Assembly: GCA_038891095.1 (NCBI GenBank) | Contig: JAWAEV010000001.1 | Location: forward strand, 36,458 to 100,457 | DNA length: 64,000 nucleotides | Source of the DNA: Candidatus Altiarchaeota archaeon | GTDB lineage: Archaea; Altiarchaeota; Altiarchaeia; IMC4; QMZM01 | Direction of reading: 5' to 3' | In this document: positions 4,920-49,910 of the stretch, in pieces | Numbering within the stretch: position 1 is the stretch's first letter | Layout: each line of letters begins with the position of its first letter | Program-made: the position numbers and the translations under genes | The notes under the pieces: generated by a model | Seen by the model: the letters and a program-made list of their open reading frames with translations, nothing else | Database searches by the model: none | What the model was told of the DNA's origin: nothing

Positions 4920-5612
4920 ATGAATAATATTGAACTAGCAAAGAAATTATCTGCAAAGAAGGCAATTGAATTTGTTAAGGAGGGTATGAGTATCGGCTTA
5001 GGTACAGGGACAACCACAGAGTATTTTATCTATGGATTATCTAAGCTAATTGCAAAAGAGAAAATAAAAATTGTTGGAATTCCAACTTCTCTAAACACAG
5101 AAAAGTTAGCTAAAAAATTAAAAATTCCAATTTCAACTCTTGATAAATATCCCGAAGTAGATCTATGCATTGATGGTGCTGATCAAATTGACTTTAAATT
5201 TAATATGATTAAAGGTGGTAAAGGAGCGCATACAAGAGAGAAGATAATTGCAAAAGCATCAAAGAAGTATGTTGTCATTGTTGACTATACAAAAATTTCA
5301 AGAATCCTTAACAGAGAAGTTCCGGTTGAAATTTTAAATTTTTCAAAGGGATTTGTTGAGAAAGAGCTGATCAAAATTGGTGGGACTCCAAAATTGAGGG
5401 AAAATTTTATAACTGACAATGGATGCATCATCTTAGATACAAAATTTAAGAGGATTGATAATGCTAAAAAAACTGAGTTAATGATAAATTCAATTCCAGG
5501 AGTAATTGAAAATGGAATTTTCTCGATGAGAAAGCCAGATATTGTAATTGTTGGTTATCCTGAAAAAGTTGAAATTTTAGAAAGAAGATATTTAAAAAGA
5601 AATTCAAAATGA
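4920..5612 (+). CDS. rpiA: ribose-5-phosphate isomerase A
   Basis: GLGTGTT, DGADQ, IKGGKGAHTREK. Confidence 0.95.
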   Translation: MNNIELAKKLSAKKAIEFVKEGMSIGLGTGTTTEYFIYGLSKLIAKEKIKIVGIPTSLNTEKLAKKLKIPISTLDKYPEVDLCIDGADQIDFKFNMIKGGKGAHTREKIIAKASKKYVVIVDYTKISRILNREVPVEILNFSKGFVEKELIKIGGTPKLRENFITDNGCIILDTKFKRIDNAKKTELMINSIPGVIENGIFSMRKPDIVIVGYPEKVEILERRYLKRNSK

Positions 5613-9663: not shown

Positions 9664-10545
9664 ATGATAGATACTGAGTTTTTAGAAAATTTAAAAAATT
9701 TAAATTTCATAGCTCGGAAGAAAATTACAAGTGTATACATAGGTTCAAGAAGCTCAGTGATGCAAGGTCGTGGCTTAGAAATTTTTGACCATAGAGAGTA
9801 TTTCCCAGGAGATGATTTTAGAGCGATAGACTGGAAATTATATGGTAGAACTGAAAAATTATTCATTCGTCGCTTTGAGGAAGAAAAAAATCTCACATTA
9901 CATGTATTAATTGATTCAAGTAGAAGTATGGATTTTTCTCTTGGTGGAAAGAGAAAATTTGATTATGCAGAAAGTATTGCTATGGGCTTTACATATTTAG
10001 CGATGATAAAATATGAAAAATTTTCAACAGCTTTATATGCTGAGAAAATTAGAGAAGTTACAGCAGCAAAAAAAGGGAAAAAACATTTCTTTAGTATTTT
10101 AGATTTGTTAAATAAAGTTGAACCATATGGCCAAAGTAAATTAAAAGAATCAATGGAACAGTATAGGAATTTTATAAAGACAAAATCCTTTGTTGTGTTA
10201 ATATCTGACTTCTTAGAGGAGCTATCTTCAATAGAAGAAGGGCTTTACAGACTTGCAAAAAATTCAAAAGAATGTATTGCAATACAAATTTTAGATCCAA
10301 GTGAAATTTATCTTAAGTGGAATGAGGACATAAAATTTGAGGATTTAGAGACATATAGGACAGAGGTAGCTTACATAAGCCCAGGATTTAGAGAGGAATA
10401 TAGAAGAAGAATAAAAGAGCACATATTCAAAATACAAAAAATTTGTGATGATTTAGATATAGAATTTTTTTTACTCACTACAGATATGCCATTATTTGAT
10501 TCATTTCTGAATATTTTAAGATTGAAAAAGAAGGTTATAATATAA
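9664..10545 (+). CDS. DUF58 / vWA-like protein (usually MoxR-associated)
   Basis: HREYFPGDDFRAIDWK, DSSRSM, ISDF. Confidence 0.9.
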   Translation: MIDTEFLENLKNLNFIARKKITSVYIGSRSSVMQGRGLEIFDHREYFPGDDFRAIDWKLYGRTEKLFIRRFEEEKNLTLHVLIDSSRSMDFSLGGKRKFDYAESIAMGFTYLAMIKYEKFSTALYAEKIREVTAAKKGKKHFFSILDLLNKVEPYGQSKLKESMEQYRNFIKTKSFVVLISDFLEELSSIEEGLYRLAKNSKECIAIQILDPSEIYLKWNEDIKFEDLETYRTEVAYISPGFREEYRRRIKEHIFKIQKICDDLDIEFFLLTTDMPLFDSFLNILRLKKKVII

Positions 10546-27687: not shown

Positions 27688-27961
27688 GGCAGTGACCATA
27701 GTCCATCTTCTGTCAGCTTTTTAAGCCACGCTTAAGTTAGCTGTTTTGGCATTCGTCTAAGCGTTTTAAAAAACTTGCACCCAACGCAACATTTGTCTCA
27801 CAAGATTTTGCAATTTTCTCTCAGATAGGATACTTCATAGAAATTGCAAAATCATCTCATCTCTCGTATGTTGCTTTGCCTCTCGGCAATTAAAAATTTA
27901 TTGGGTGGATGGAGCTTCCTCATTCTCATTTAAGAGAACGGTAGCCAAATGAGTCACTACC
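27688..27961 (-). ncRNA. rnpB: RNase P RNA, type-M-like
   Basis: Minus strand: P1 GGTAGTGAC/GTCACTGCC, GAGGAAGCTCCATCCACC, GGGTGCAAG, CGCTTAGACGAATG, ACAGAAGATGGACTA. Confidence 0.9.
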
Positions 27962-28000
27962 TCCGAATATTTCTTTGACATAGATAGTTTATCGCTAGGA

Positions 28001-30913
<2,913 letters not shown>

Positions 30914-31087
30914 TCTCTCTGGCGAACTATCTATGCACGGTATCATGATATCAACCCTTCACCCAAAACACTTTGGTTTTGAGTTGCATCTAAATTTTTA
31001 TTAATAAATTTTTATAATGAAATTAAGTAAGTATATTAAAATTTTATTTATTTTAACCATATCAATTAAATCCCGACGAGCAGAGAT

Positions 31088-31161
31088 TGGACCCGTCGGG
31101 ATTTGAACCCGAGGCCTTCCGCTTGCAAAGCGGACGATCTACCAGACTGATCTACGGGCCC
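31088..31161 (-). tRNA. tRNA-Ala(UGC)
   Basis: GGGCCCG...TTGCAA...GGTTCAAATCC...CGGGTCCA cloverleaf in the 16S-23S spacer. Confidence 0.95.
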
Positions 31162-31290
31162 GTATAAGGCCTAAAGCCATCATGGCCCAAAATAGTAACA
31201 TAAAGCAAATTATTCTTTTTAATTGTTTTTTATTTTCTCTGTTCTCTAAGCTCTTAACTCTTAATCTATCTTTACTCTACTTTACTTAAT

Positions 31291-32891
<1,601 letters not shown>

Positions 32892-40152: not shown

Positions 40153-40326
40153 TCAACCTTTTAATTCTTTAACATTTGCTCTTTTTTCACTTTCATTTTC
40201 ACCTACTGCTTTTCTGAATTCCTTAATTGCTTTTGCAAGAGATCTTGCAACTTCTGGAAGTTTTTTTGGATTAAGAAAGAGAAGTGCTATTATAAAAACT
40301 AAAATTAGTTCTGATGTACCAATCAT
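40153..40326 (-). CDS. tatA: twin-arginine translocase TatA/B subunit
   Basis: Manual translation MIGTSELILVFIIALLFLNPKKLPEVARSLAKAIKEFRKA...; below ORF-track cutoff. Confidence 0.88.
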   Translation of the reverse strand: MIGTSELILVFIIALLFLNPKKLPEVARSLAKAIKEFRKAVGENESEKRANVKELKG

Positions 40327-40327
40327 T

Positions 40328-41020
40328 TTACTTTAAATTTTTTGATATCAAAATGCTCATCTCATATATTAATATCATAGGAATTGCAACTAATATTTGA
40401 GTTAGCCCTGAGGTGTCAGGAGTTATAATAGCAGCAATTAAGAAAATTAAAACAATGGCATAACTTCTCTTTGAAATTAATTCTTTTGGATTTAGAAATT
40501 TAAGTTTTGTTAAAATTCCAATTATCAAAGGCAATTGAAAAACAATTCCAAAAATTAACATCATTGAGATAATGAAATCAAATGTTTGTTCTAAACTTAA
40601 AAGAGGCGTTGCAACTGGTAGAGAGAATTCGATTAAAATTTTTAATGTTATGGGAATTAAAAGAAGATATGAAAAGAGAAGGCCTAAGAGGAATAGTAGC
40701 ATTGAGGAAAAAAGAGTTATAAGGAGAAGCTTTTTTTCATTTCTTTTCATAGCTGGCTCAATAAAACTCAAAAATTCAAAAAGAAATATAGGCGAACTAA
40801 GAAAAAATCCTAAGAGAATAGAAATTTTAAGAGATAGCACTATTGCCTCAAGTGGTGAAAAAATATATAGCTGATACTCAGGAATTATATCTCTTTTAAT
40901 TTTATTTAGGACCCCTCCTGAGAAGGGATATGAGAGAATTGAAAATAAAACTAATGCAAGAATGCTTAATAAAATTCTCTTTCTCAGTTCAATGAGATGC
41001 TCCAAAAAAGTTTTTCTCAT
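40328..41020 (-). CDS. tatC: twin-arginine translocase TatC
   Basis: LEHLIELRKR, FQLP, AAIITPD...Q...PM..YE. Confidence 0.93.
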   Translation of the reverse strand: MRKTFLEHLIELRKRILLSILALVLFSILSYPFSGGVLNKIKRDIIPEYQLYIFSPLEAIVLSLKISILLGFFLSSPIFLFEFLSFIEPAMKRNEKKLLLITLFSSMLLFLLGLLFSYLLLIPITLKILIEFSLPVATPLLSLEQTFDFIISMMLIFGIVFQLPLIIGILTKLKFLNPKELISKRSYAIVLIFLIAAIITPDTSGLTQILVAIPMILIYEMSILISKNLK

Positions 41021-41022
41021 TT

Positions 41023-42522
41023 TTATTCTTCGCTGAATACTTCTGCTTTGTAGGTGTAAACCTCAACTCCTTTCCTCCAACAATCCTCTGGCATACCCCC
41101 CTTCAAACATAAACTAGAAAGAAAAATTTTCTTATCTGGAATTTGTTCCCAAACTTGTGGCAAATAGGTTGATTGTCTTGAACCAAACTTCAGTACAACT
41201 CCGTCCTTATAAGGAGTTAACTTATTTAGTAAATCTTCATCAGAAGAATATTTTAAAATTTTTGGTAATGATAACACTGAAATTTCAATTTTTATATCTT
41301 TTAGCTCATCATATCTTACTTCAGTGAATCTTGGATCATGAAGTGCAGCATTAATTGCATTTTCTATAACACATTCATATAAAGGAACTTGTGGTAAGAT
41401 ATGGCCAATACAACCTCTAAGTTGATCGCTCTTCTTTAATGTTACAAAACAACCTTGCTTCATTTTTAAATTTTCAGAAATTTCAGTTTCATTAATATAT
41501 GGCTTAATACCAGTGCTCAGATAAGATTCAAGTGTTTTCCTTGCTAAATTTAATAAAAATTTTTTATCATTTTCATTTATGCTATCGCTCTCATTTCTAT
41601 AGAAAACAATTGATGCATAACCAACAACTCTACTTCTATCGCCATATGTATCACCTGAATTATTGTAGTTTAAGAGCATAGCATTCCAATTTTTTTCTTT
41701 TGCTATATACATTAAAGTTATAACTGGTATTTTTCCACATGCCTCACATTGATCAATTTTAGAAGAATCCATGCTGATAACAGCATCTATGCATTTCCTA
41801 TCTAAATCAAGAGCTTTTTCATATGAATAATAATGACTTAGATCAGAGCTTGCTATTACTAATGAGTTATCATCAATGTATTTCATCAAAGCATCTGCAA
41901 GTTCTTTCGGCTTTACATTGCTAACAACTATTGGAACAATTGTAAAATTTTTAAGAACTTTTTGTAGGAATGGAATTTGAACCTCTACTGAATGTTCCCT
42001 CAGAAATGCAGCATCGTTAACCACAAAAATTTCTCGCTCATTCTTTAGCATTTCTCTTGCTTTTTTTGAAATTTTTACTTTCCCTAAGGGAGTTTCATAA
42101 GTTGTTGCGTTTAATATTGCTGCTCCATTGAACCAAGAATAATGTGAAGGACCTAAAATGAATACAGTTTCATACTCCCTGCCAATTAATTTTTTATAGC
42201 CAAATGCAGCAACTTTGCCAGAAAAGATATAACCTGCATGTGGTGCAATCAAGCCACAAATATTCCCAGAGATTTTTCTTTCTTTTGCATTTTCAATATA
42301 GCTATTTACCATCTCATCCAAAATTTTTTTTTCCGAGGGATAAAACTGACCAGCAACAACTGCCTTCTTTACAATTTCTTCTTCAATTTCTTGTTCTTTT
42401 TCTTTTTTCTCTTTGCTAAATTGAGAATAAAATAGAGGGATACAAATCAACAAAGAGGTAATAAAAATTAACAAAAAAATTTTCCTTTGCTTATATTTTC
42501 TTACATCTTTTCTTTTTTTCAT
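41023..42522 (-). CDS. AmmeMemoRadiSam protein B-A fusion (MEMO1 + AMMECR1) with N-terminal membrane anchor
   Basis: VAGQFYP, PHAGY, GPSH, EHSVEVQ, SSDLSHY; then FVTL..LRGCIG, DPRF, YLPQVW; N-terminal basic stretch plus TM. Confidence 0.92.
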   Translation of the reverse strand: MKKRKDVRKYKQRKIFLLIFITSLLICIPLFYSQFSKEKKEKEQEIEEEIVKKAVVAGQFYPSEKKILDEMVNSYIENAKERKISGNICGLIAPHAGYIFSGKVAAFGYKKLIGREYETVFILGPSHYSWFNGAAILNATTYETPLGKVKISKKAREMLKNEREIFVVNDAAFLREHSVEVQIPFLQKVLKNFTIVPIVVSNVKPKELADALMKYIDDNSLVIASSDLSHYYSYEKALDLDRKCIDAVISMDSSKIDQCEACGKIPVITLMYIAKEKNWNAMLLNYNNSGDTYGDRSRVVGYASIVFYRNESDSINENDKKFLLNLARKTLESYLSTGIKPYINETEISENLKMKQGCFVTLKKSDQLRGCIGHILPQVPLYECVIENAINAALHDPRFTEVRYDELKDIKIEISVLSLPKILKYSSDEDLLNKLTPYKDGVVLKFGSRQSTYLPQVWEQIPDKKIFLSSLCLKGGMPEDCWRKGVEVYTYKAEVFSEE

Positions 42523-42523
42523 T

Positions 42524-43243
42524 TTAAAATCTATGAGAAAATCTAATTGCGTTCTTTGGACATTTAGATAAACACTCAAAACAAATTATGCAGTCAGTTG
42601 AGTTTAAATCAACATTTTCTTTCTTGTTATTTATTTTCATTTCACATACCTCTTTACAGATTTTACATTTATTACAAAGTTTTTCCTTAAATTTCAACTT
42701 TAATAAGCTCAACTTATTTGAGATTGAAATCAATGCACCTAAAGGACATAAAAATCTACAAAAAAATCTCGAACTAAATGCTGCAACAAAGATTGAAATA
42801 GCAAGAATTAATGAAAGCAAAATGTTAGTTGATGGAAATTCGTTGAGAATCTTTATTGAGATTATTCTAGAGAGATTTAGTGCAAAAATAAAAGCTATGA
42901 AAAGAAATAGAAATTTTATCTTTGAATTTCTTGCTATGACTAAATCCTTTGATTTTGAAATTTTTCTTGAAAAGAAATTTATAATGTCTTGAAAAAAACC
43001 AAAAGGACATGAGAAAGAGCAAAATACTCTTCCAGCAAATATTGCTGAAATGCCAATGAAAAATATTGTTGCTTTTCTCATATACTTTGATGGGCACCAA
43101 AAATATGTGCAGAAATTACATGATATCCATGGCAATGTATAGGGACAGTAGAAAACAGCAAAAAAAAGAGGGAATAGAAAATAAAGAGAAATACTCTGAG
43201 AAATTATTCGTAAAGCTCTAAATTTCAAAAATTTGAAATTCAT
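42524..43243 (-). CDS. membrane 4Fe-4S protein (NapH/MauN-like)
   Basis: GRVFCSFSCPFG, RFFCRFLCPLG, two CxxCxxCxxxC motifs. Confidence 0.88.
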   Translation of the reverse strand: MNFKFLKFRALRIISQSISLYFLFPLFFAVFYCPYTLPWISCNFCTYFWCPSKYMRKATIFFIGISAIFAGRVFCSFSCPFGFFQDIINFFSRKISKSKDLVIARNSKIKFLFLFIAFIFALNLSRIISIKILNEFPSTNILLSLILAISIFVAAFSSRFFCRFLCPLGALISISNKLSLLKLKFKEKLCNKCKICKEVCEMKINNKKENVDLNSTDCIICFECLSKCPKNAIRFSHRF

Positions 43244-43246
43244 TTT

Positions 43247-44458
43247 TTAATTCCAGATGCCTGGAATTTTAGCTCCACAATTTTTGCATTTACCATCAAT
43301 TATATCATTGCGTTTTATTTTATAGCCAATTCTCTCGATAAGTAAACTCTTACATTTTGGGCAATAAGTATTTTCATAATCATCATGGGGAACATTCCCT
43401 ATATATACAAAATTTAATCCTACATTAAGGGCTATATCTCTTGCCTTTTTTAAAGTTTCTATTGGCGTTGGTGGTAAATTTGTTAACTTATACATAGGAT
43501 GAAATCTACTGAAATGCAATGGAATATCCTTGCTTAAATTTTCTTTAATCCATTCACATAGTTGTTTTATCTCCTCTAAGTTATCATTTAGGGTCGGCAC
43601 AACAAGGTTTACAATCTCGAACCACTTTGCCTCTCTATAAGTAATTTTACATGCTTTCAGAACATGCTCTAATTCTGCTTCGCAAATTTCTCTATAAAAT
43701 CGCTCGTTAAAACCTTTTAGATCGATTTTTATTGCATCTACCTCCTTTGCCAAGTTAATAAGAGGCTTTTCATTTATATACCCTGCTGTAACTACAACAT
43801 TTCTTATTCCCTTTTCATTAGCAATTTTTGCTGTGTCTAACATATAGTCATAGAATGCAACAGGCTCGGCATATGTATATGCTATTGTCATAACTTTATC
43901 ATCTTTTCCTTTTTCATTTAATGCTAATTCAACTGTTTTCTCAGGTAGCATATCATAATTTGTTGTTTCTTCTGGCTTTTTCTGGGAGATATCAAAATTT
44001 TGGCAATATTTACATCTCAGATTGCATCCTGCTGTTGATAAAGAAAAAGCAAATGTTCCTGGGAGAAAGTGATAGAATGGCTTCTTCTCTATAGGATCAA
44101 TATGTAAGGCGCATGGATTTCCATAAGTTAAAGTATAAAGCTTACCCCTAAAATTAACTCTTGCTCTACATATGCCTCTTTCATTCTCATTCAAAGAACA
44201 TTGATGTGGACATAACTTGCATCTGATGTAACTTGGAAATTTTTCATAATAACTTGCTTCTTTTGACCATTTCCATAGCTCTTGAATTTGACTTCCAACT
44301 GAATTTTCTACTGGTAATTTTTCCAAAAATAGTTTTTTTAGGATAAAATATCCTGCAGCAATTCCAAATAAGCCAACTACCCCTTTCTTTAAAAAATCCC
44401 TTCTCGTAATTTTTTGCTTAAAAAACGATGTTGAATTTCTCCTTTTTATTTTCTTCAT
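43247..44458 (-). CDS. AmmeMemoRadiSam radical SAM enzyme with Tat signal peptide
   Basis: ITRRDFLKKGVVGLFGIAAG; CKLCPHQC; DPIEKKPFYHF; GCNLRCKYCQN; HFSRFHP; YIGNV. Confidence 0.92.
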   Translation of the reverse strand: MKKIKRRNSTSFFKQKITRRDFLKKGVVGLFGIAAGYFILKKLFLEKLPVENSVGSQIQELWKWSKEASYYEKFPSYIRCKLCPHQCSLNENERGICRARVNFRGKLYTLTYGNPCALHIDPIEKKPFYHFLPGTFAFSLSTAGCNLRCKYCQNFDISQKKPEETTNYDMLPEKTVELALNEKGKDDKVMTIAYTYAEPVAFYDYMLDTAKIANEKGIRNVVVTAGYINEKPLINLAKEVDAIKIDLKGFNERFYREICEAELEHVLKACKITYREAKWFEIVNLVVPTLNDNLEEIKQLCEWIKENLSKDIPLHFSRFHPMYKLTNLPPTPIETLKKARDIALNVGLNFVYIGNVPHDDYENTYCPKCKSLLIERIGYKIKRNDIIDGKCKNCGAKIPGIWN

Positions 44459-44459
44459 T

Positions 44460-46640
44460 TTATTTAAACTTGAAAAAAGCATATAACATTATTATTATAT
44501 TCAACAAAAATAGAAAAATACATGTTTCTAGTACACCTAAAATTGGGATCAATAATGTCGCCCCAAAATAAGCACCTATACACGCCCCAAGTAAATCTGA
44601 TGAATAAAGTAGGGGTGCTCTCTCTATAACTTTTAGGGATTTATTTTTTTCGTAAAGAGAAACTGCTAATGGAAAAACCGCTCCAACTAGGGCACCAATG
44701 ATTATAGTTAAAAATGGGAAGAGAACTTCAACTGAAAAGAACATGAAATTTTGATCAGTGATATTTGATATTGAAAAGAATATTAATGGGAGTGCTATGG
44801 AGTATAAAGCTATAAAAAATTGAAACTTTAGTAGTTCTAAATAAGAAAATTTCCCAAATTTGATTCTTTCTGTTATATAAATAGAGGCAAGAAATAGACC
44901 AAACATAAATGCAGTTATTATTACACCTATCTTCTCATAGACATAACCATAAAGAATTTGAAACCCAAAGATTAGGATAAATTCTATTAGCATTCCTGAA
45001 AAGCCAACTGACATTATAGCTAGGGATATCGGCTTTAATTTTGTAATATAAATAGAAAAAGCAAGTATGATCAAAAAAATTGCGATGATAAATTTAAAAT
45101 CCATATTAAAAAGACTAAGCCAATAGTGTAGATAATGATAAAGTGAAATTGGCCTGAAATCTTCATTAGTTCTTTCAGTACTATCATTCAGTGCTTTTTT
45201 AAAGTAATTTATTCTCTCATCATTGATCTTTCCATTTATGTAGTATTGCATATAGCTAGTGCTTATATTTTTCTGCATTAATTTCTCCTCATAGTTATAA
45301 TCTAACTCTTTATCAGATGAGATAAAGTAAATTGTTTCTCCAGGAATTATGAGAACATTCTTGAAAATTTTTTTTAAGGTTTTATAAATTGCAGAGTTTA
45401 AAGCTGAAACTTCTGAGCTTAGGTAATTTCCAGAACCAGAAGATAACCTCAAAGAGAAAATGCCATCTTTATTCAAAATTTTTTTAACTTCTGAGAAAAA
45501 CTCTAATGTGTAAAATCTGTTAACTTGTATTGAATTAGGAGTTGGTAGATCTACTATGATAACATCATAGCTCTCGTTACATCTCTTTACAAAAAATCTT
45601 CCATCATTTACATGAATGCTAACTTTTTCATTTCCTAAATTTTCAGGAACAAACTTGCTTGCTATTTCAATAATTTTTGCATCAAGTTCAACATAATCAA
45701 TTTTTTCAACAGATGAGTACTTTAGTAATTCATTCAAAGTTCCTGAAATACCACCAGATAATAAAAGAACTTTCTTAGGGTTTGAACTTTGGAGCATGGC
45801 ATAATGGACTCTTTCCTCATTTGAAAAATTTTCATTTGTTGAAAACAAGTGAAATGAATTCTCATAAAAATTTAGCTGATTTTGAAGTTTAGTAATAGTT
45901 ATAGTTCCGTAAATTGAATTTCCATGATAAATCAGTTGTTGTGAAGGGAACTGGAGTTTTATTGCCTCTGTTTGAAAATCTAAATTTAGAGATGTTAAAA
46001 AAAGAAGGGAGAGTATAGATAGTAAAAAAATGAATTTTTTTCTCTCATTAGAATTTAGAAGTTTAGATAATGCAAGAGCTGTGATTAAATTTAGTGCAAT
46101 AACAATTTCTGCGCTTTGGAATGAATTTAAGAAGAATATAAAAAAATAACTAAAAAGGAAACCTCCAGATAAACTGCCTAAGCTTTCCAAGACATAAACT
46201 CTATTAGCACCATGCTCTAAATAGCCTCTTCTTTTATTTTCTGAAAATATAGAACAGAGAAGTGCAAATTGAATTCCAAAAATTAAACATGGTATAAACA
46301 GAACTACAAAAGAAAAAAAGAAAACAAAAATTAAATTTACTTGCTCCCCTGGAGCAGCAACGAAACTCCTTGCTACTTTTACTAAAAAAATTGAAGGCAA
46401 TATTACTAATGAAATTAAAATTTCAGATGTTATGAAAATTTTTAGCTTCTCTCTAATATTTTGTAGAAATTTTCCGATATAGCTTCCAAAAGCAGTGAGA
46501 AAAAGCCAATTTCCTAAAACAACCGCAAGCAAAAGTTCATTTCCATAAAATCCAGAAATTGATTCTCTTAAGAGGATTATTTGCGTTAGTATTGATGAAA
46601 AGCCTAACAAAAAAGCTGCAAAAATAAGTGGCTTTTCCAT
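44460..46640 (-). CDS. polytopic membrane protein fused to a spermidine-synthase-like SAM-binding domain
   Basis: N- and C-terminal TM bundles around KKVLLLSGG, VELD, DGR, YDVIIVD, YTLEFF. Confidence 0.85.
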   Translation of the reverse strand: MEKPLIFAAFLLGFSSILTQIILLRESISGFYGNELLLAVVLGNWLFLTAFGSYIGKFLQNIREKLKIFITSEILISLVILPSIFLVKVARSFVAAPGEQVNLIFVFFFSFVVLFIPCLIFGIQFALLCSIFSENKRRGYLEHGANRVYVLESLGSLSGGFLFSYFFIFFLNSFQSAEIVIALNLITALALSKLLNSNERKKFIFLLSILSLLFLTSLNLDFQTEAIKLQFPSQQLIYHGNSIYGTITITKLQNQLNFYENSFHLFSTNENFSNEERVHYAMLQSSNPKKVLLLSGGISGTLNELLKYSSVEKIDYVELDAKIIEIASKFVPENLGNEKVSIHVNDGRFFVKRCNESYDVIIVDLPTPNSIQVNRFYTLEFFSEVKKILNKDGIFSLRLSSGSGNYLSSEVSALNSAIYKTLKKIFKNVLIIPGETIYFISSDKELDYNYEEKLMQKNISTSYMQYYINGKINDERINYFKKALNDSTERTNEDFRPISLYHYLHYWLSLFNMDFKFIIAIFLIILAFSIYITKLKPISLAIMSVGFSGMLIEFILIFGFQILYGYVYEKIGVIITAFMFGLFLASIYITERIKFGKFSYLELLKFQFFIALYSIALPLIFFSISNITDQNFMFFSVEVLFPFLTIIIGALVGAVFPLAVSLYEKNKSLKVIERAPLLYSSDLLGACIGAYFGATLLIPILGVLETCIFLFLLNIIIMLYAFFKFK

Positions 46641-46643
46641 ATT

Positions 46644-46775
46644 CTACTTTAATCCTCTTTTAAATTCCTTTATAGCTTCACCAAGAGAGCGAGCTAATTC
46701 TGGCAATTTTTTGCTCCCAAATAAAAGTAGGAGTATCAAAAAAATCAACAAAATTTCAAATGTTCCAATCGCCAT
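46644..46775 (-). CDS. tatA: twin-arginine translocase TatA
   Basis: Manual translation MAIGTFEILLIFLILLLLFGSKKLPELARSLGEAIKEFKRGLK. Confidence 0.92.
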   Translation of the reverse strand: MAIGTFEILLIFLILLLLFGSKKLPELARSLGEAIKEFKRGLK

Positions 46776-46837
46776 TTTGATGTATTTAGGCGTTATCTTT
46801 ATTAATAATTACTTTCCATTATAAATAACACCTATAA

Positions 46838-47815: not shown

Positions 47816-47979
47816 GAAAGAAAAGGATTAAGGGAAGGGAGTATTTTTACTTAGTTAAAAGCATAAGGAAAGGGAAAAAAGTAAGGCAAATAACTTTGAA
47901 ATATTTTGGCACAGAAATCCCAAAAAATTTTGACTTTAAACACTTAGAAAACAAAGGAGTAATAAAATGCAAAAATTAG
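47806..47979 (+). CDS. 57-aa basic protein resembling the N-terminal beta domain of IS1634 transposases and some archaeal Fic proteins
   Basis: Manual translation MFIRKKRIKGREYFYLVKSIRKGKKVRQITLKYFG... Confidence 0.65.
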   Translation: MFIRKKRIKGREYFYLVKSIRKGKKVRQITLKYFGTEIPKNFDFKHLENKGVIKCKN

Positions 47980-49910
47980 AAATAAGGGCAATATTGTTAA
48001 TTTTTGTTTTGTTTTTTATTTCATTTGAAGCACTTGCAGATGAAACAATGCTATTAGAATGGTCCTATAAAGCAGATAGTACAATAACTTCTCTATACTC
48101 TGATGATATAAATTTGGATTCCTATGGAGAAATTATTTTTGCCTCATATGATAAGCTTTATGTCTTTGATAAAAAAGGAAATTTGCTAAAAAATTATAAA
48201 TTAAACTCAAAAGGGAAAGCATATGCTATTAAAACAACACATTTAGAAGACAATAAAACAAAAAAAATTTTTGTTGGATTTGGGTGGAATGAAAGAACTC
48301 CTGTTAGAAGGCAATATCTAAATTTAAGTGCAGACGGAAGTGCTATAACAAGAGGTATATTGTATGAGAAAAATTTGCATAAAGGCGAGTTAAAAATTTT
48401 TGATTATGTTAAAACTAATGAGACAAATAAAACAGAAATTAGTGGATGGATTAAAGAAATGATAATTGCTGATTTTGATTTTGATGGTGAAAATGATATA
48501 ATCCTTATCACATCTGGCTATGATACTTTTTTTTATGAAGAATGGGTTGATTGGGCTAGTGAAGTAAAGTGTAGTGATTTTAACTATAGTTCATATCAAC
48601 CACTTGGCTATAGCTGCACTCCAATATATATTGAAGGTTTATATTGCTACAGAGATTGCGAACCAATTAGCAACTTCACTTCTACAACACTACCAAAAAG
48701 ATATGAAAACAAAACTGGTAAAATAAAGGAGTTTTATGAAGAAACTAAAAAAAGAAGTTCAATAATTGTGCTATCTCAAAATTTTACAGAGAAGGTAAAT
48801 TCCACATATGAAAAAATTTTCTTGAATGCTGATTTTTTAAATTTTCAAAATTTTAGAAACATAATTATTAGCTCTGATGATAAAAAAATTTATTCACTCT
48901 CAGTAATGAACTTCACAGAGGAATGGACATATGAAAGCCCTGATGACATAAAAGAAGTTATTGCTACTGACCTTCAAGACGATGGAGTTCCTGAGATAAT
49001 TTTGGCATATTCTGGAAAAATATCTGGAGTTCAAGGCTTAACTAGATCTGGTGAAAAATTTTTGGATTTCAGAATTCCTCTGGGTGAGAATATAAGAGCA
49101 GTTTCTATCTATAGGCTATATGCACAAGATTCTGAGAAGAAAATTTTTATAATTACTGACAAAAATTTCTATGTGATGGAACTAAATGGAAAGACAATTA
49201 TAAAACAACCAATTTTAGGAATGGACAAAATGCTTGTTAGTGATTTTGACAAAGATAATAATACAGAAGTTGTACTATCGAAAGGTGAAGCTCTCTACTA
49301 TTATAAAATTTTGAGTGAATTTTCAAAGGAGAGTTTAGCTGATAAACTCTGTGAAAATGCAAAGAACTCAATGGATTTGAATTATACATTAGCAAGAGAA
49401 CTCGCAGAGACTGCGATTAAAACTTATAGAGAGATTAACAAAAGTGGAAAAGCTGAAGAATGCTATATTCTAATGTTAGAAATAGAAAAAAGAATTTTCG
49501 AGAAGAAAAAAGTGGAAGCAGATACATTCTATGCAAAAGCAATTAGCTTTTTTGCATTTGAAGATTATAAAAAAGCTGAAGAATTCGCTGATAATGCACT
49601 TGAAATTTATAAGGAGATTGATGATGTAAACGGAATAAAAAATTCAAATGCCCTCCTCTCAAAGATAAGAGAATTTTACGCTCCACCTACCACAATTGTC
49701 ACAACAACCACTTTTGAAGAAACTAAAACAGAAATACAAACAACAATTTTGCTAACGACAACTACTACGCTTCCCAAACAGAATCAAGAAGTGCCAACAA
49801 ATACAATATTGCTAATTGCACTAACAATTTTAGTTATTTTGATAATAATTTGGAAGAAAAGAGAACGCTCAGAGGAAAAAGAATTTTCAGAAATAACAAG
49901 GGAAAAGTAA
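47967..49910 (+). CDS. secreted FG-GAP plus helical repeat protein with Thr-rich linker and TM anchor
   Basis: DFDFDGENDI, DLQDDGVPEI, DFDKDNNTEV; paralog of 34212..35903. Confidence 0.75.
   Translation: MQKLEIRAILLIFVLFFISFEALADETMLLEWSYKADSTITSLYSDDINLDSYGEIIFASYDKLYVFDKKGNLLKNYKLNSKGKAYAIKTTHLEDNKTKKIFVGFGWNERTPVRRQYLNLSADGSAITRGILYEKNLHKGELKIFDYVKTNETNKTEISGWIKEMIIADFDFDGENDIILITSGYDTFFYEEWVDWASEVKCSDFNYSSYQPLGYSCTPIYIEGLYCYRDCEPISNFTSTTLPKRYENKTGKIKEFYEETKKRSSIIVLSQNFTEKVNSTYEKIFLNADFLNFQNFRNIIISSDDKKIYSLSVMNFTEEWTYESPDDIKEVIATDLQDDGVPEIILAYSGKISGVQGLTRSGEKFLDFRIPLGENIRAVSIYRLYAQDSEKKIFIITDKNFYVMELNGKTIIKQPILGMDKMLVSDFDKDNNTEVVLSKGEALYYYKILSEFSKESLADKLCENAKNSMDLNYTLARELAETAIKTYREINKSGKAEECYILMLEIEKRIFEKKKVEADTFYAKAISFFAFEDYKKAEEFADNALEIYKEIDDVNGIKNSNALLSKIREFYAPPTTIVTTTTFEETKTEIQTTILLTTTTTLPKQNQEVPTNTILLIALTILVILIIIWKKRERSEEKEFSEITREK

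Follow-up and report, generated by a model that had tools for sequence, protein, structure and literature searches.

The AmmeMemoRadiSam system is signal-less and cytoplasmic in its canonical form. Iron-sulfur enzymes that are exported by the Tat pathway and fed by NapH/NosR/RdhC(PceC)-type proteins are known from other contexts, i.e., NapG-NapH, NosZ-NosR and the reductive dehalogenases, and minimal translocases consisting of TatA and TatC occur in archaea and in Gram-positive bacteria. Tat signals carry the consensus S/T-R-R-x-F-L-K followed by an uncharged h-region, and basic residues immediately after the h-region are a feature by which such signals avoid the Sec pathway. To our knowledge, neither SAM nor a low-potential reductant is known outside the cytoplasmic membrane.

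Here, we describe an operon found within a 64,000-nt stretch of DNA (the window) from the metagenome-assembled genome (MAG) of a small hot-spring archaeon of the Altiarchaeota (0.96 Mb, 93.65% complete). We assign a probability of roughly 60% to the reading that this operon supplies a minimal TatA/TatC translocase along with the main and perhaps sole cargo of that translocase in this genome, namely a multi-cluster radical SAM enzyme from a separate, signal-bearing branch of AmmeMemoRadiSam, which would work on the outer face of the membrane. If this is true, chemistry that is held to be intracellular runs on the membrane's outer face. A literature search found no paper on an exported system with a private Tat translocase and phyletic coupling between the two, a combination that we regard as new.

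The operon and its source genome

The seven minus-strand genes claimed by the first-pass annotation stand as described, with open reading frames (ORFs) at matching positions and Pfam and NCBIfam matches for the members (Table 1). Their order is tatA, MFS/SpeE-like, radical SAM, NapH-like, Memo-AMMECR1, tatC and tatA, and the spacers between them measure 1-3 nt (from the ORF coordinates), assuming starts at 44458 for the radical SAM gene and at the ATG at 42522 for the fusion. Both tatA genes are missing from the ORF track, as had also been pointed out, because at 43 and 57 aa they are shorter than its 60-aa threshold. The spacer upstream of the operon contains TATA-like runs (by eye) and is the only room for an operon promoter.

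Table 1. Positions of the operon's genes and associated features within the window
Feature	Positions	Strand	Description
tatA-2	40153..40326	-	57 aa, operon's last gene; TatA_B_E (PF02416) 3.9e-15, 55.3 bits vs. 21
tatC	40328..41020	-	230 aa; Pfam TatC (PF00902) 5.6e-55, 186.8 bits; TIGR00945 171.9 vs. cut-off 132.7
Memo-AMMECR1 fusion with N-terminal signal-anchor	41023..42579	-	518 aa from TTG; likely ATG 42522, giving 499 aa
NapH-like four-helix membrane iron-sulfur protein	42524..43243	-	239 aa; Fer4_5 1.1e-16, Fer4_10 3.6e-6 (Pfam)
AmmeMemoRadiSam-type radical SAM enzyme, signal-bearing clade	43247..44482	-	411 aa, or 403 aa from ATG 44458
Tat-type signal or signal-anchor of the radical SAM enzyme	44324..44482	-	basic n-region, ITRRDFLKK, h-region, c-region, linker
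MFS transporter (7+7 helices) with inserted SpeE-like domain	44460..46640	-	726 aa; Spermine_synth 2.9e-31 (Pfam)
tatA-1	46644..46775	-	43 aa, operon's first gene; TatA_B_E 3.7e-16; TIGR01411 tatAE 63.3 bits vs. cut-off 53.9
A+T-rich spacer	46776..46837	.	62 nt (sequence); common to the operon and a divergent ilvC-like gene

The radical SAM enzyme scored 369 bits against TIGR04337 (NCBIfam, cut-off 220) and matched Radical_SAM at 4.3e-18 (Pfam). Its CX3CX2C motif (C145, C149 and C152) is invariant in an alignment of 41 of its 120 homologs (alignment A1), as are further Cys groups, and the pyruvate formate-lyase (PFL)-activating enzyme is its closest solved relative both by fold (3cb8, E 3.8e-14, TMt 0.81) and by sequence profile (7.6e-15). 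The Memo-AMMECR1 fusion lies one gene downstream, with the NapH-like gene in between, and is recognized in both of its parts by Pfam (Memo 2.6e-63, AMMECR1 1.5e-48) and NCBIfam (TIGR04336 270 bits, cut-off 26; TIGR04335 208 bits, cut-off 99). Of the 37 Memo/AMMECR1 genes that adjoin a radical SAM gene, 35 are fused. In a comparison of 35 fusions, H114, H146, E195, D246, H249 and R388-G389-C390-x-G392 are invariant, and H196 and C281 are conserved in 34.

The same genome contains another AmmeMemoRadiSam trio, consisting of a signal-less radical SAM enzyme (C3, 338 aa), a Memo (C9) and an AMMECR1 (C7), which are dispersed; the operon is therefore a second, specialised set. In a tree from a quick search, in which the automatic signal labels on the rows are imperfect, 16 signal-less rows (the genome's own included) separate from 101 other rows with SH-aLRT 100 and a branch length of 0.42.

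N-terminal signals and membrane topology

Signals were called by regular expression and by eye, and topology was assessed with a hydropathy script, an AF2 model and the positive-inside rule. The radical SAM enzyme shows the Tat consensus followed by an uncharged h-region near its N-terminus: ITRRDFLKK is succeeded by the h-region GVVGLFGIAAGYFIL, a basic c-region (KKLFLEK), which would fit Sec avoidance, and a flexible linker. The RR pair corresponds to residues 27-28 of the 411-aa ORF, or 19-20 when counted from the internal ATG at 44458, and both candidate starts are thus located upstream of the motif, as the initial proposal requires. In the predicted model, a helix (residues 19-45) and a low-confidence linker (46-60) precede the globular core. 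RR and a hydrophobic stretch occur together in 90 of the best 120 homologs; another 21 have KR or RK, four have the hydrophobic stretch only and five have none of these. The 80 loci from multiple phyla were divided by eye into 36 with RR, 17 with KR, one with RK, 16 with Sec-like N-termini and 10 with none, split or unclear ones.

By the hydropathy script, the radical SAM enzyme has 12 K/R residues ahead of its helix, and the Memo-AMMECR1 fusion has 11 ahead of its single transmembrane helix. The positive N-terminus and one helix of the latter, together with the Sec- or lipoprotein-like N-termini seen by eye in 33 of the 37 Memo/AMMECR1 neighbours, predict that the Memo domain does not face the cytoplasm, in agreement with the earlier proposal.

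Alternatively, and in our view unlikely, the system might be tethered to the membrane but cytoplasmic, with the helices serving as anchors only, a substrate located in the membrane (e.g., an isoprenoid lipid), and tatAC adjacent for unrelated reasons. That SAM and ferredoxin-type reductants are, as established knowledge, known inside cells only would suit such an arrangement, as would the reported tie of Memo contexts to isoprenoid modification, whereas the charges ahead of the two helices place the N-termini inside and the domains outside. The window's signal, as read from the sequence, has no obvious AxA cleavage site, and in three loci (L027, L029 and L081) a small ORF of its own, in a different frame, encodes the anchor segment, both consistent with a tether; against this, the strict Tat consensus is kept across phyla, and many of the partner fusions have lipoprotein or cleavable Sec-type starts and therefore cannot keep their domain in the cytoplasm.

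The case for a mere anchor also draws on the 16 of 80 loci where the radical SAM N-terminus is Sec- or lipoprotein-like and without RR. tatC was not found in seven of eight possibly incomplete genomes with such an enzyme and, because passage of an iron-sulfur enzyme through Sec is hard to accept, the helix may be just an anchor in these lineages. The joint loss of the signals of the radical SAM enzyme and the fusion in one Bacteroidota group argues the other way. Each of the three signal-less fusions (L038, L049 and L073) is paired with a signal-less radical SAM gene, and in L033 the radical SAM enzyme is without any N-terminal extension, yet its Memo-AMMECR1 starts lipoprotein-like. The outward placement predicted on independent grounds for the SpeE-like domain and the tracking of the system by tatC in two phyla (both described below) also count against a cytoplasmic location. 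Hence, we favor export, and the catalytic domains probably work outside the cytoplasmic membrane.

The MFS/SpeE-like protein

What had been annotated as a membrane/SpeE-fold protein does combine these two elements and can be specified as an MFS transporter into which a SpeE-like domain is inserted, based on an AF2 model (pLDDT 90.6, pTM 0.91) and its fold matches (VMAT2 9kqa, Z 29.5, 346 residues, rmsd 3.4, for the MFS part; 1uir, E 1.5e-13, for the SpeE part). It also passes the cut-off of NF037959, 'fused MFS/spermidine synthase' (64 bits vs. 40), with the MFS surrounding the SpeE fold as in that family. The inserted domain, of an adenosyl-binding type, spans approximately residues 235-510 and is inserted into the central helix pair at its tip, which is predicted to lie outside. 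It is predicted to face outward, with a mean K+R count of 18.7 on the side of the termini vs. 5.5 on the side of the SpeE-like domain and the same direction in 34 of 34 relatives.

Through alignment to 1uir, we mapped the SpeE residues that we take to be catalytic. The acidic position of GGG(D/E)G is acidic in none of the 34 relatives, being hydrophobic or small instead; at the first catalytic Asp, 18 of them have N and six have D; and the second is Thr in the window's protein. E318 and D346 are conserved in 32/34 and 34/34 relatives, respectively. Judging from these alignments, the domain appears to retain the adenosine-binding residues of spermidine synthase, without those for aminopropyl transfer. 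An assignment as spermidine synthase (aminopropyltransferase) was considered and rejected, given the scores below cut-off (TIGR00417, 111.6 vs. 249.55; PRK03612, 192.3 vs. 472) and the lack of conservation of the catalytic residues.

These results bear on a second alternative, namely that the SpeE protein is a true aminopropyltransferase joined to an MFS polyamine exporter and that the radical SAM, Memo and AMMECR1 genes are unrelated neighbours in a mixed operon, which we find very improbable. The SpeE-like fold and the Spermine_synth match, the only one above cut-off in the genome, speak for it, and so do the best MFS fold matches, which are amine cation transporters and drug/proton antiporters, a group in which polyamine exporters exist. 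Apart from the missing catalytic residues and the missed equivalog cut-offs, no AdoMet decarboxylase was found in this 93.65% complete genome, where MetK is present, and therefore no decarboxylated SAM is expected. The gene accompanies the signal-bearing radical SAM enzyme across phyla, in at least 40 of the 80 loci (more may be hidden by the many short contigs) and in 14 of the 16 fetched Altiarchaeota loci, and was not found in the fetched flanks of four signal-less Paludibacter-type loci (two of them, L056 and L073, on short contigs), all of which argues against a polyamine role.

The NapH-like protein and other redox links

The NapH-like protein has the architecture of the NapH/MauN group, with four helices (hydropathy script), two CX3CP motifs (CSFSCP and CRFLCP), Fer4_5 matches in two stretches, and a C-terminal 2x[4Fe-4S]-type domain (Fer4_10, 27.3 vs. 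cut-off 25.5). Since it scores under the family cut-offs (TIGR02163, 91.7 bits vs. 213.05; the NapH equivalog NF007013, 83.3 vs. 234), we name it 'NapH-like' only. A four-Cys loop between helices 1 and 2 is shared with one close relative (L092), the only one of the 16 fetched Altiarchaeota loci in which such a gene also lies beside the cluster; among the 80 other loci, five have it. The earlier proposal of a NapH-like partner thus holds for the window's operon but not in general, the gene being an accessory, lineage-specific member. Other redox links include proteins of 1336-1344 aa that fuse Spermine_synth, FMN_bind and Fer4_5, a DUF362 gene directly upstream of the radical SAM gene in 12 loci (the representative, L083, opens with a Tat-type motif), and a DsbD_2 gene directly downstream of it in 10 loci.

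Tat genes and their distribution

With both TatC and TatA present, the operon encodes the components of a TatAC translocase; no separate TatB family matched above a cut-off (NCBIfam), and tatC is a single match in the whole genome. tatA-2 falls just below the TIGR01411 cut-off (52.2 vs. 53.9 bits), and counterparts of tatA-1 were found by tblastn next to tatC in related archaeal loci. In counts based on related genomes, which are not independent samples, and on incomplete MAGs, tatC is present in 25 of 61 Altiarchaeota genomes, that is, in 19/19 with the signal-bearing enzyme (17 with RR seen and two cut by contig ends) vs. 6/42 without it, and in six of 121 sampled genomes of a second archaeal phylum. 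Five of the latter six carry the cluster, with tatC directly adjoining the SpeE-MFS gene, so that adjacency is found in 5/5 cluster genomes and tatC in 1/116 of the remaining ones.

The linkage of tatAC with the system, as first proposed, is borne out as co-occurrence in two archaeal phyla, across which tatC appears to follow the exported system, but adjacency is lineage-specific. Of the 17 RR-bearing Altiarchaeota genomes, seven have tatC inside the fetched stretch and 10 have it on a different contig or more distant, many assemblies being fragmented; tatAC adjacency was seen in 3 of the 80 other loci, and it recurs in an Omnitrophota locus (L018).

Nor does the source genome contain a crowd of unrelated Tat substrates, consistent with the first-pass annotation: a crude regular-expression scan returned 37 loose RR-plus-hydrophobic candidates, among which the full consensus occurs in the radical SAM enzyme alone. 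RR also lies close to the start in seven others, namely MarC, VIT1, a pilin-like protein and four family-less short ORFs, none of which is a clear cargo. tatC also occurs in genomes where no signal-bearing enzyme was detected, six from Altiarchaeota and one from the second phylum, and therefore Tat has, or had, other clients. Nonetheless, it seems reasonably probable that these archaea retain Tat chiefly for the exported system. It is very improbable that tatA-tatC-tatA is a general Tat machinery with several missed cargos, positioned here by an accident of gene order in a compact genome, since, even if the distant tatC genes, the six Altiarchaeota genomes with tatC and without the system, the crudeness of the scan and the four family-less ORFs leave room for it, the radical SAM enzyme is, by its consensus motif, a Tat cargo, which makes the neighbourhood one of translocase and client, the adjacency recurs in the second phylum and in Omnitrophota, and the phyletic match is close.

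Proposed mechanism

The claim that radical SAM chemistry is sent outside with its own translocase is supported in silico by the signals, the topology, the co-occurrence of tatC and the lack of another clear cargo. Under this model, the radical SAM enzyme would fold and gain its iron-sulfur clusters in the cytoplasm, would be translocated in folded form over the membrane by TatAC, and would remain tethered by its uncleaved signal helix and a flexible linker of about 15 residues. The Memo-AMMECR1 fusion would be inserted via the general secretion route and anchored with its N-terminus in and its C-terminus out, so that all three catalytic domains could come together at the outer face.

The likeliest role for the MFS/SpeE-like protein would be to move SAM, or a related adenosyl cation, over the membrane and supply the radical SAM enzyme with it, with product uptake as an alternative; we advance SAM delivery only tentatively. 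The NapH-like protein might pass electrons from cytoplasmic ferredoxin-type clusters outward and reduce the radical SAM cluster, a conduit function that we likewise regard as possible rather than probable. That neither SAM nor a low-potential reductant is known outside the cytoplasmic membrane is a point against the export reading. Our best guess is that the substrate belongs to the envelope or to the space beyond the membrane, and a role in 'cell-surface modification or salvage' is likewise a guess.

Comparison with known systems

Compared with canonical AmmeMemoRadiSam, all three families (TIGR04335, TIGR04336 and TIGR04337) are above cut-off here, and the active-site-type residues of Memo, the RGCxG of AMMECR1, and the CX3CX2C and extra Cys groups are kept. 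Unlike the signal-less, cytoplasmic form, the radical SAM enzyme bears a Tat signal and a signal-anchor precedes the fused Memo and AMMECR1 domains, and therefore we file the operon as a variant of AmmeMemoRadiSam; further, its genes are accompanied by one for an MFS/SpeE-like protein and, in some archaea, by tatAC. The genes of the canonical set in the same genome are unlinked, and its radical SAM enzyme belongs to a different clade from that of the operon. The PFL-activating enzyme (3cb8, 3c8f), the closest solved relative, is cytoplasmic, about 245 aa long and has one cluster, whereas the window's enzyme has, in addition, a signal and a four-Cys module at its N-terminus and a Cys-rich module at its C-terminus.

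As in the NapG-NapH, NosZ-NosR and dehalogenase systems, an iron-sulfur enzyme with a Tat signal adjoins a four-helix CX3CP protein with a ferredoxin-type domain, and the same type of module, with FMN_bind, is elsewhere fused to the SpeE-MFS protein. The differences are that the presumed exported enzyme is a radical SAM enzyme rather than a respiratory reductase and that the NapH-like protein is without FMN_bind, scores under cut-off and has a lineage-specific four-Cys loop. The MFS/SpeE-like protein matches the fused MFS/spermidine synthases (NF037959, whose cut-off it passes) and the membrane 'polyamine aminopropyltransferase' PRK03612 in architecture, and Atlas clusters of like make-up are named polyamine aminopropyltransferase family or hypothetical. 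It differs in that the catalytic residues of aminopropyltransferases have not been conserved, the inserted domain has a predicted outward orientation, and the gene is linked to a radical SAM system and not to polyamine genes. Finally, the operon resembles minimal TatA-TatC translocases in having one tatC and small tatA genes, and differs from them in that these genes bracket the presumed cargo within one operon and that, in two archaeal phyla, tatC is almost restricted to genomes with the exported system.

A seven-gene operon bracketed by tat genes

The first-pass annotation had proposed, in this order, seven tightly packed genes that send radical SAM chemistry to the outer face of the membrane, and their content and order are borne out, with each identity backed by both Pfam and NCBIfam. 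The seven ORFs are consecutive and separated by spacers of 1-3 nt, if translation indeed begins at the internal ATGs at 44458 and 42522. The radical SAM enzyme scores 369 bits against TIGR04337 (cut-off 220), the Memo and AMMECR1 parts of the fusion score 270 bits against TIGR04336 (cut-off 26) and 208 bits against TIGR04335 (cut-off 99), respectively, and TatC scores 172 bits against TIGR00945 (cut-off 133). The NapH-like protein falls below the NapH/MauN cut-off (91.7 vs. 213), while the SpeE-like protein falls below the spermidine synthase equivalogs and exceeds the cut-off of the "fused MFS/spermidine synthase" family NF037959 (64 vs. 40); we call it SpeE-MFS. The genome amounts to 958,546 bases in 15 contigs, and the DNA of the window was present in four DNA sequencing runs, all from a single hot-spring study, with no RNA run among the sequencing runs found to contain it. 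Elsewhere in the window, an archaeal rRNA operon and, next to it, an RNase P RNA gene identify the source as an archaeon, with no 5S rRNA found by Rfam in the window, and a further ORF looks like a surface protein, judging from its signal-like N-terminus, Thr-rich stretch and C-terminal hydrophobic anchor.

Coordinates (window positions), strand and length of the features discussed; operon genes are in transcription order
Feature	Coordinates	Strand	Length	Remark
Seven-gene operon	40153-46775	minus		
tatA		minus	43 aa	first
Membrane protein with Spermine_synth domain (SpeE-MFS)		minus	726 aa	second
Radical SAM enzyme		minus	411 aa	third
NapH-like protein	42524-43243	minus	239 aa	fourth
Memo-AMMECR1 fusion		minus	518 aa	fifth
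tatC		minus		sixth
tatA		minus	57 aa	seventh, last
Archaeal rRNA operon plus RNase P RNA	27688-32818			rRNA operon on minus strand
RNase P RNA gene	27688-27961			37 nt past the 23S gene
tRNA	31088-31161			in the 16S-23S spacer
ORF of surface-protein appearance	47967-49910	plus	647 aa	

A signal-bearing branch of the radical SAM enzyme

At its N-terminus, the enzyme encoded in the window has a basic stretch followed by ITRRDFLKK, an uncharged h-region and a basic KKLFLEK. Its AF2 model (pLDDT 91) has a helix at residues 19-45 and a disordered linker at residues 46-60, followed by a compact core for which the nearest solved fold is that of PFL-activating enzyme. Given the family's likeness to a protein-radical activase, the target may just as well be a protein, AMMECR1 included, as a lipid or polymer of the envelope. 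Among the best 120 of 8000 scored homologs, RR stands with a hydrophobic stretch in 90 and is replaced by KR or RK in 21; four have the hydrophobic stretch only, and five have none of these. We also inspected by eye 80 loci, selected among at least 600 hits to species-representative genomes and mostly bacterial (more than 10 phyla); these showed RR in 36 cases, KR in 17, RK in one, a Sec- or lipoprotein-like start without the consensus in 16, and no, a split or an unclear signal in 10. The bacterial relatives include members of Bacteroidota, Thermodesulfobacteriota and Acidobacteriota.

In three bacterial loci (L027 at ~9700-10000, L029 at ~5150-5440 and L081 at ~2150-2450), a separate small ORF combines a membrane anchor with a conserved 'EAxYY' segment, which is the usual radical SAM N-terminus placed in another frame and ending where a short radical SAM ORF begins; a split gene, a recurring frameshift and faulty assembly are all possible explanations. 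These three loci, together with a fourth (L033) in which the enzyme has no N-terminal extension, count against the export model.

The genome encodes a second full AmmeMemoRadiSam set, which is dispersed and devoid of signals: a 338-aa radical SAM enzyme on contig C3, Memo on C9 and AMMECR1 on C7. A quick maximum-likelihood tree was built from 117 radical SAM cores (hits with <250 aligned residues excluded). In it, 16 signal-less sequences, the C3 copy among them, form one side of a branch of length 0.42 with SH-aLRT 100, and all sequences with an N-terminal signal lie on the opposite side. Altiarchaeota signal-bearing forms occupy at least three separate places among the bacterial ones; the search being quick and the automatic signal labels imperfect, we rely only on the split between signal-less and signal-bearing forms. 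An open frame of at least 387 aa predicts the signal-bearing form poorly: four of the 20 Altiarchaeota loci picked in this way (L093, L095, L100 and L102) and all six non-cluster loci so picked in a second archaeal phylum (L130-L135) turned out to encode ordinary short forms.

Coupling to the Tat translocase

The genome holds one tatC, and a loose six-frame scan for RR followed by a hydrophobic stretch returned 37 ORFs, with the full consensus present only in the radical SAM enzyme. Seven others (MarC, VIT1, a pilin-like protein and four short ORFs without a family) have the RR no more than 45 residues from the first start codon. The count from this loose scan agrees with the expectation that few other Tat substrates would exist.

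Across Altiarchaeota, tatC occurs in 25 of 61 genomes, that is, in all 19 genomes with the signal-bearing enzyme (17 with RR, and two more in which the gene is cut by a contig end) vs. six of the 42 others. In the second archaeal phylum (that of locus L016, labelled Aenigmatarchaeota), six of 121 sampled genomes have tatC. Five of these six carry the cluster with tatC adjoining the SpeE-MFS gene (tatA detected in four of the five; the radical SAM gene cut by a contig end in one and the cluster spread over two contigs in another), and the sixth has tatC and tatA with only short radical SAM forms. These tallies are counts rather than statistics, as the genomes are related and the MAGs incomplete. 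The proposed linkage of tatAC to the system holds as co-occurrence in two archaeal phyla, where tatC is largely confined to system-bearing genomes, but adjacency does not hold as a general rule, tatC being inside the fetched stretch in seven of the 17 RR-bearing Altiarchaeota genomes and nearby in three (L016, L018 and L020) of the 80 mainly bacterial loci. Further, the seven genomes with tatC and no system count against the export model.

A transporter with a candidate SAM-binding domain

Of the 80 loci, 40 pair the signal-bearing radical SAM enzyme with a SpeE-MFS gene, and in two more a contig end cuts the gene; among the 16 fetched Altiarchaeota loci, 14 have the pairing. The protein was modelled from 34 relatives, drawn from the 41 loci (window counted) that hold the gene, with pLDDT 90.6 and pTM 0.91, as two sets of seven helices flanking a SpeE-fold domain at roughly residues 235-510. 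The helices match MFS transporters (VMAT2, 9kqa, Z 29.5 over 346 residues, rmsd 3.4; also VAChT, SotB, NorA, FLVCR and ENT1), and the inserted domain matches aminopropyltransferases (1uir, E 1.5e-13 by fold and 6e-36 by profile). The loops on the side of the termini have a mean of 18.7 K+R vs. 5.5 on the side of the domain, in the same direction in all 34 sequences, which suggests cytoplasmic termini, the general rule for MFS proteins, with the SpeE-like domain at the outer tip of two extra central helices. That is, the domain is predicted to face outward.

Within this domain, E318 (32 of 34) and D346 (34 of 34) are kept; in spermidine synthases, the residues aligned with these contact ribose and adenine. 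The acidic residue of GGG(D/E)G, on the other hand, is absent from all 34 sequences, and the position of the first catalytic Asp holds Asn in 18 and Asp in six. No AdoMet decarboxylase was detectable in this 93.65%-complete genome, nor was there a further Spermine_synth gene over the cut-off. Since the adenosyl-contact residues are kept, those for aminopropyl transfer lost and no decarboxylase detected, we read the domain as a probable binder of SAM or an adenosyl compound rather than a polyamine synthase. An archaeal-type SAM synthetase was likewise not found, which raised SAM import as a necessary role of the MFS part; this role was dropped because a bacterial-type MetK is present (contig C3, 58131-58550). 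Import of products is a possible role.

Additional transporter genes were seen in Altiarchaeota relatives: one family has a Na+/H+ exchanger gene between the SpeE-MFS and radical SAM genes (L096, 6591-7772; L106, 6550-7725), and L091, L096 and L106 have TauE-family and extra MFS_1 genes between the radical SAM and Memo-AMMECR1 genes.

Memo-AMMECR1 and redox partners

A Memo gene is present in 37 of the 80 loci, fused to AMMECR1 in 35 of these, and 33 of the 37 have a Sec- or lipoprotein-type start by eye; in the window's fusion, 11 K/R precede a single helix. Across the 35 fusions, the putative active-site residues show little or no variation. Three fusions of a Paludibacter-type group (L038, L049 and L073) have no signal, and neither do the adjoining radical SAM genes, a joint loss that is the pattern expected of co-localised partners.

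By crude hydropathy, the NapH-like protein has four helices; its two CX3CP motifs and di-cluster domain share the K/R-rich side, and the opposite side, predicted to face outward, bears a four-Cys loop. The loop (CPY...LPW..C..C....WCP, residues 32-51) lies between helices 1 and 2. It is common only to the window and one Altiarchaeota relative (L092), whereas five other NapH-like neighbours have different loops. The supposed co-occurrence with the signal-bearing enzyme is seen for the SpeE-membrane gene, and the NapH-like gene is rare near the system (the window plus one of the 16 Altiarchaeota loci, and five of the 80 others). Other lineages show other redox genes. Proteins of 1336-1344 aa join Spermine_synth to FMN_bind and the same Fer4_5 module, tying SpeE-type and redox functions together; a DUF362 gene, of which a representative has a Tat-type motif at its start, is directly upstream of the radical SAM gene in 12 loci; and a DsbD_2 (CcdA-like) gene is directly downstream in 10 loci (L039, L041, L048, L050, L051, L061, L062, L064, L065 and L082), where the radical SAM enzyme starts in Sec/lipoprotein-type rather than RR fashion. 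Among eight checked genomes with such Sec/lipoprotein-type enzymes, tatC was not found in seven, which counts against the export model; if these enzymes truly exit unfolded, iron-sulfur clusters would have to be assembled outside the cytoplasm.

A tentative model of radical SAM chemistry on the outer membrane face

In the mechanism that we propose, TatAC would export the radical SAM enzyme in folded form, the enzyme would stay tethered, and the Memo-AMMECR1 fusion would be anchored next to it. The MFS protein may carry either SAM or an adenosyl cation akin to it to the outer face, to dock on the outer domain, or may bring products back in, while the NapH-like protein would send electrons outward, a task that FMN_bind/NosR-like or DsbD-like modules may take over depending on the lineage. 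Memo-AMMECR1 would complete the modification of an envelope or external substrate, and genome-reduced archaea would keep Tat essentially for this one pathway. The observed base is gene content, conserved signals, the phyletic link of tatC, the predicted outward topology and the lost aminopropyltransferase residues. Counting against the model, in addition to the cases mentioned, we know of no source of SAM or reductant outside the membrane. We give the fullest version of the model, with SAM exported and presented by the MFS protein, electrons crossing the membrane and Tat kept essentially for this pathway, a probability of roughly one in three (0.35).

To our knowledge, radical SAM enzymes are regarded as strictly cytoplasmic, given their need for SAM, a low-potential electron and oxygen-sensitive clusters. 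If the model is true, a wholly export-tagged branch conserved across multiple phyla would overturn this view, SAM or a relative would be supplied outside the membrane, and the branch would come with a transporter and electron conduits of its own, to which small archaea add a private translocase. Human homologs of Memo and AMMECR1 are linked to disease, and we know of no biochemical function for either protein; the locus offers a new handle on both, with location, partners and testable predictions defined. For archaeal cell biology, it suggests a possible reason for the retention of Tat in some very small genomes.

Relation to known systems

Openly licensed PMC papers and bioRxiv preprints yielded no description of an exported radical SAM enzyme or of this gene set, and nothing for "periplasmic radical SAM" combined with twin-arginine. 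In that literature, AmmeMemoRadiSam apparently appears in annotation mentions only. One candidate precedent, the HXS paper (radical SAM, Tat signal and periplasm), was rejected, as the Tat signal there is an engineering tool only. Burroughs et al. 2019 (J Biol Chem) is beyond that scope and may cover signal-bearing Memo-AMMECR1 contexts; its abstract reportedly connects Memo contexts with the modification of nucleotide bases and isoprenoids. AmmeMemoRadiSam is a known but uncharacterised kind of system, of which the window holds a variant. The window adds an archaeal form in which tatA-tatC-tatA surrounds the cargo, the stand-alone NapH-like gene within the system, the signal-less paralogous set in the same genome, and the restriction of tatC largely to system-bearing genomes in two archaeal phyla.
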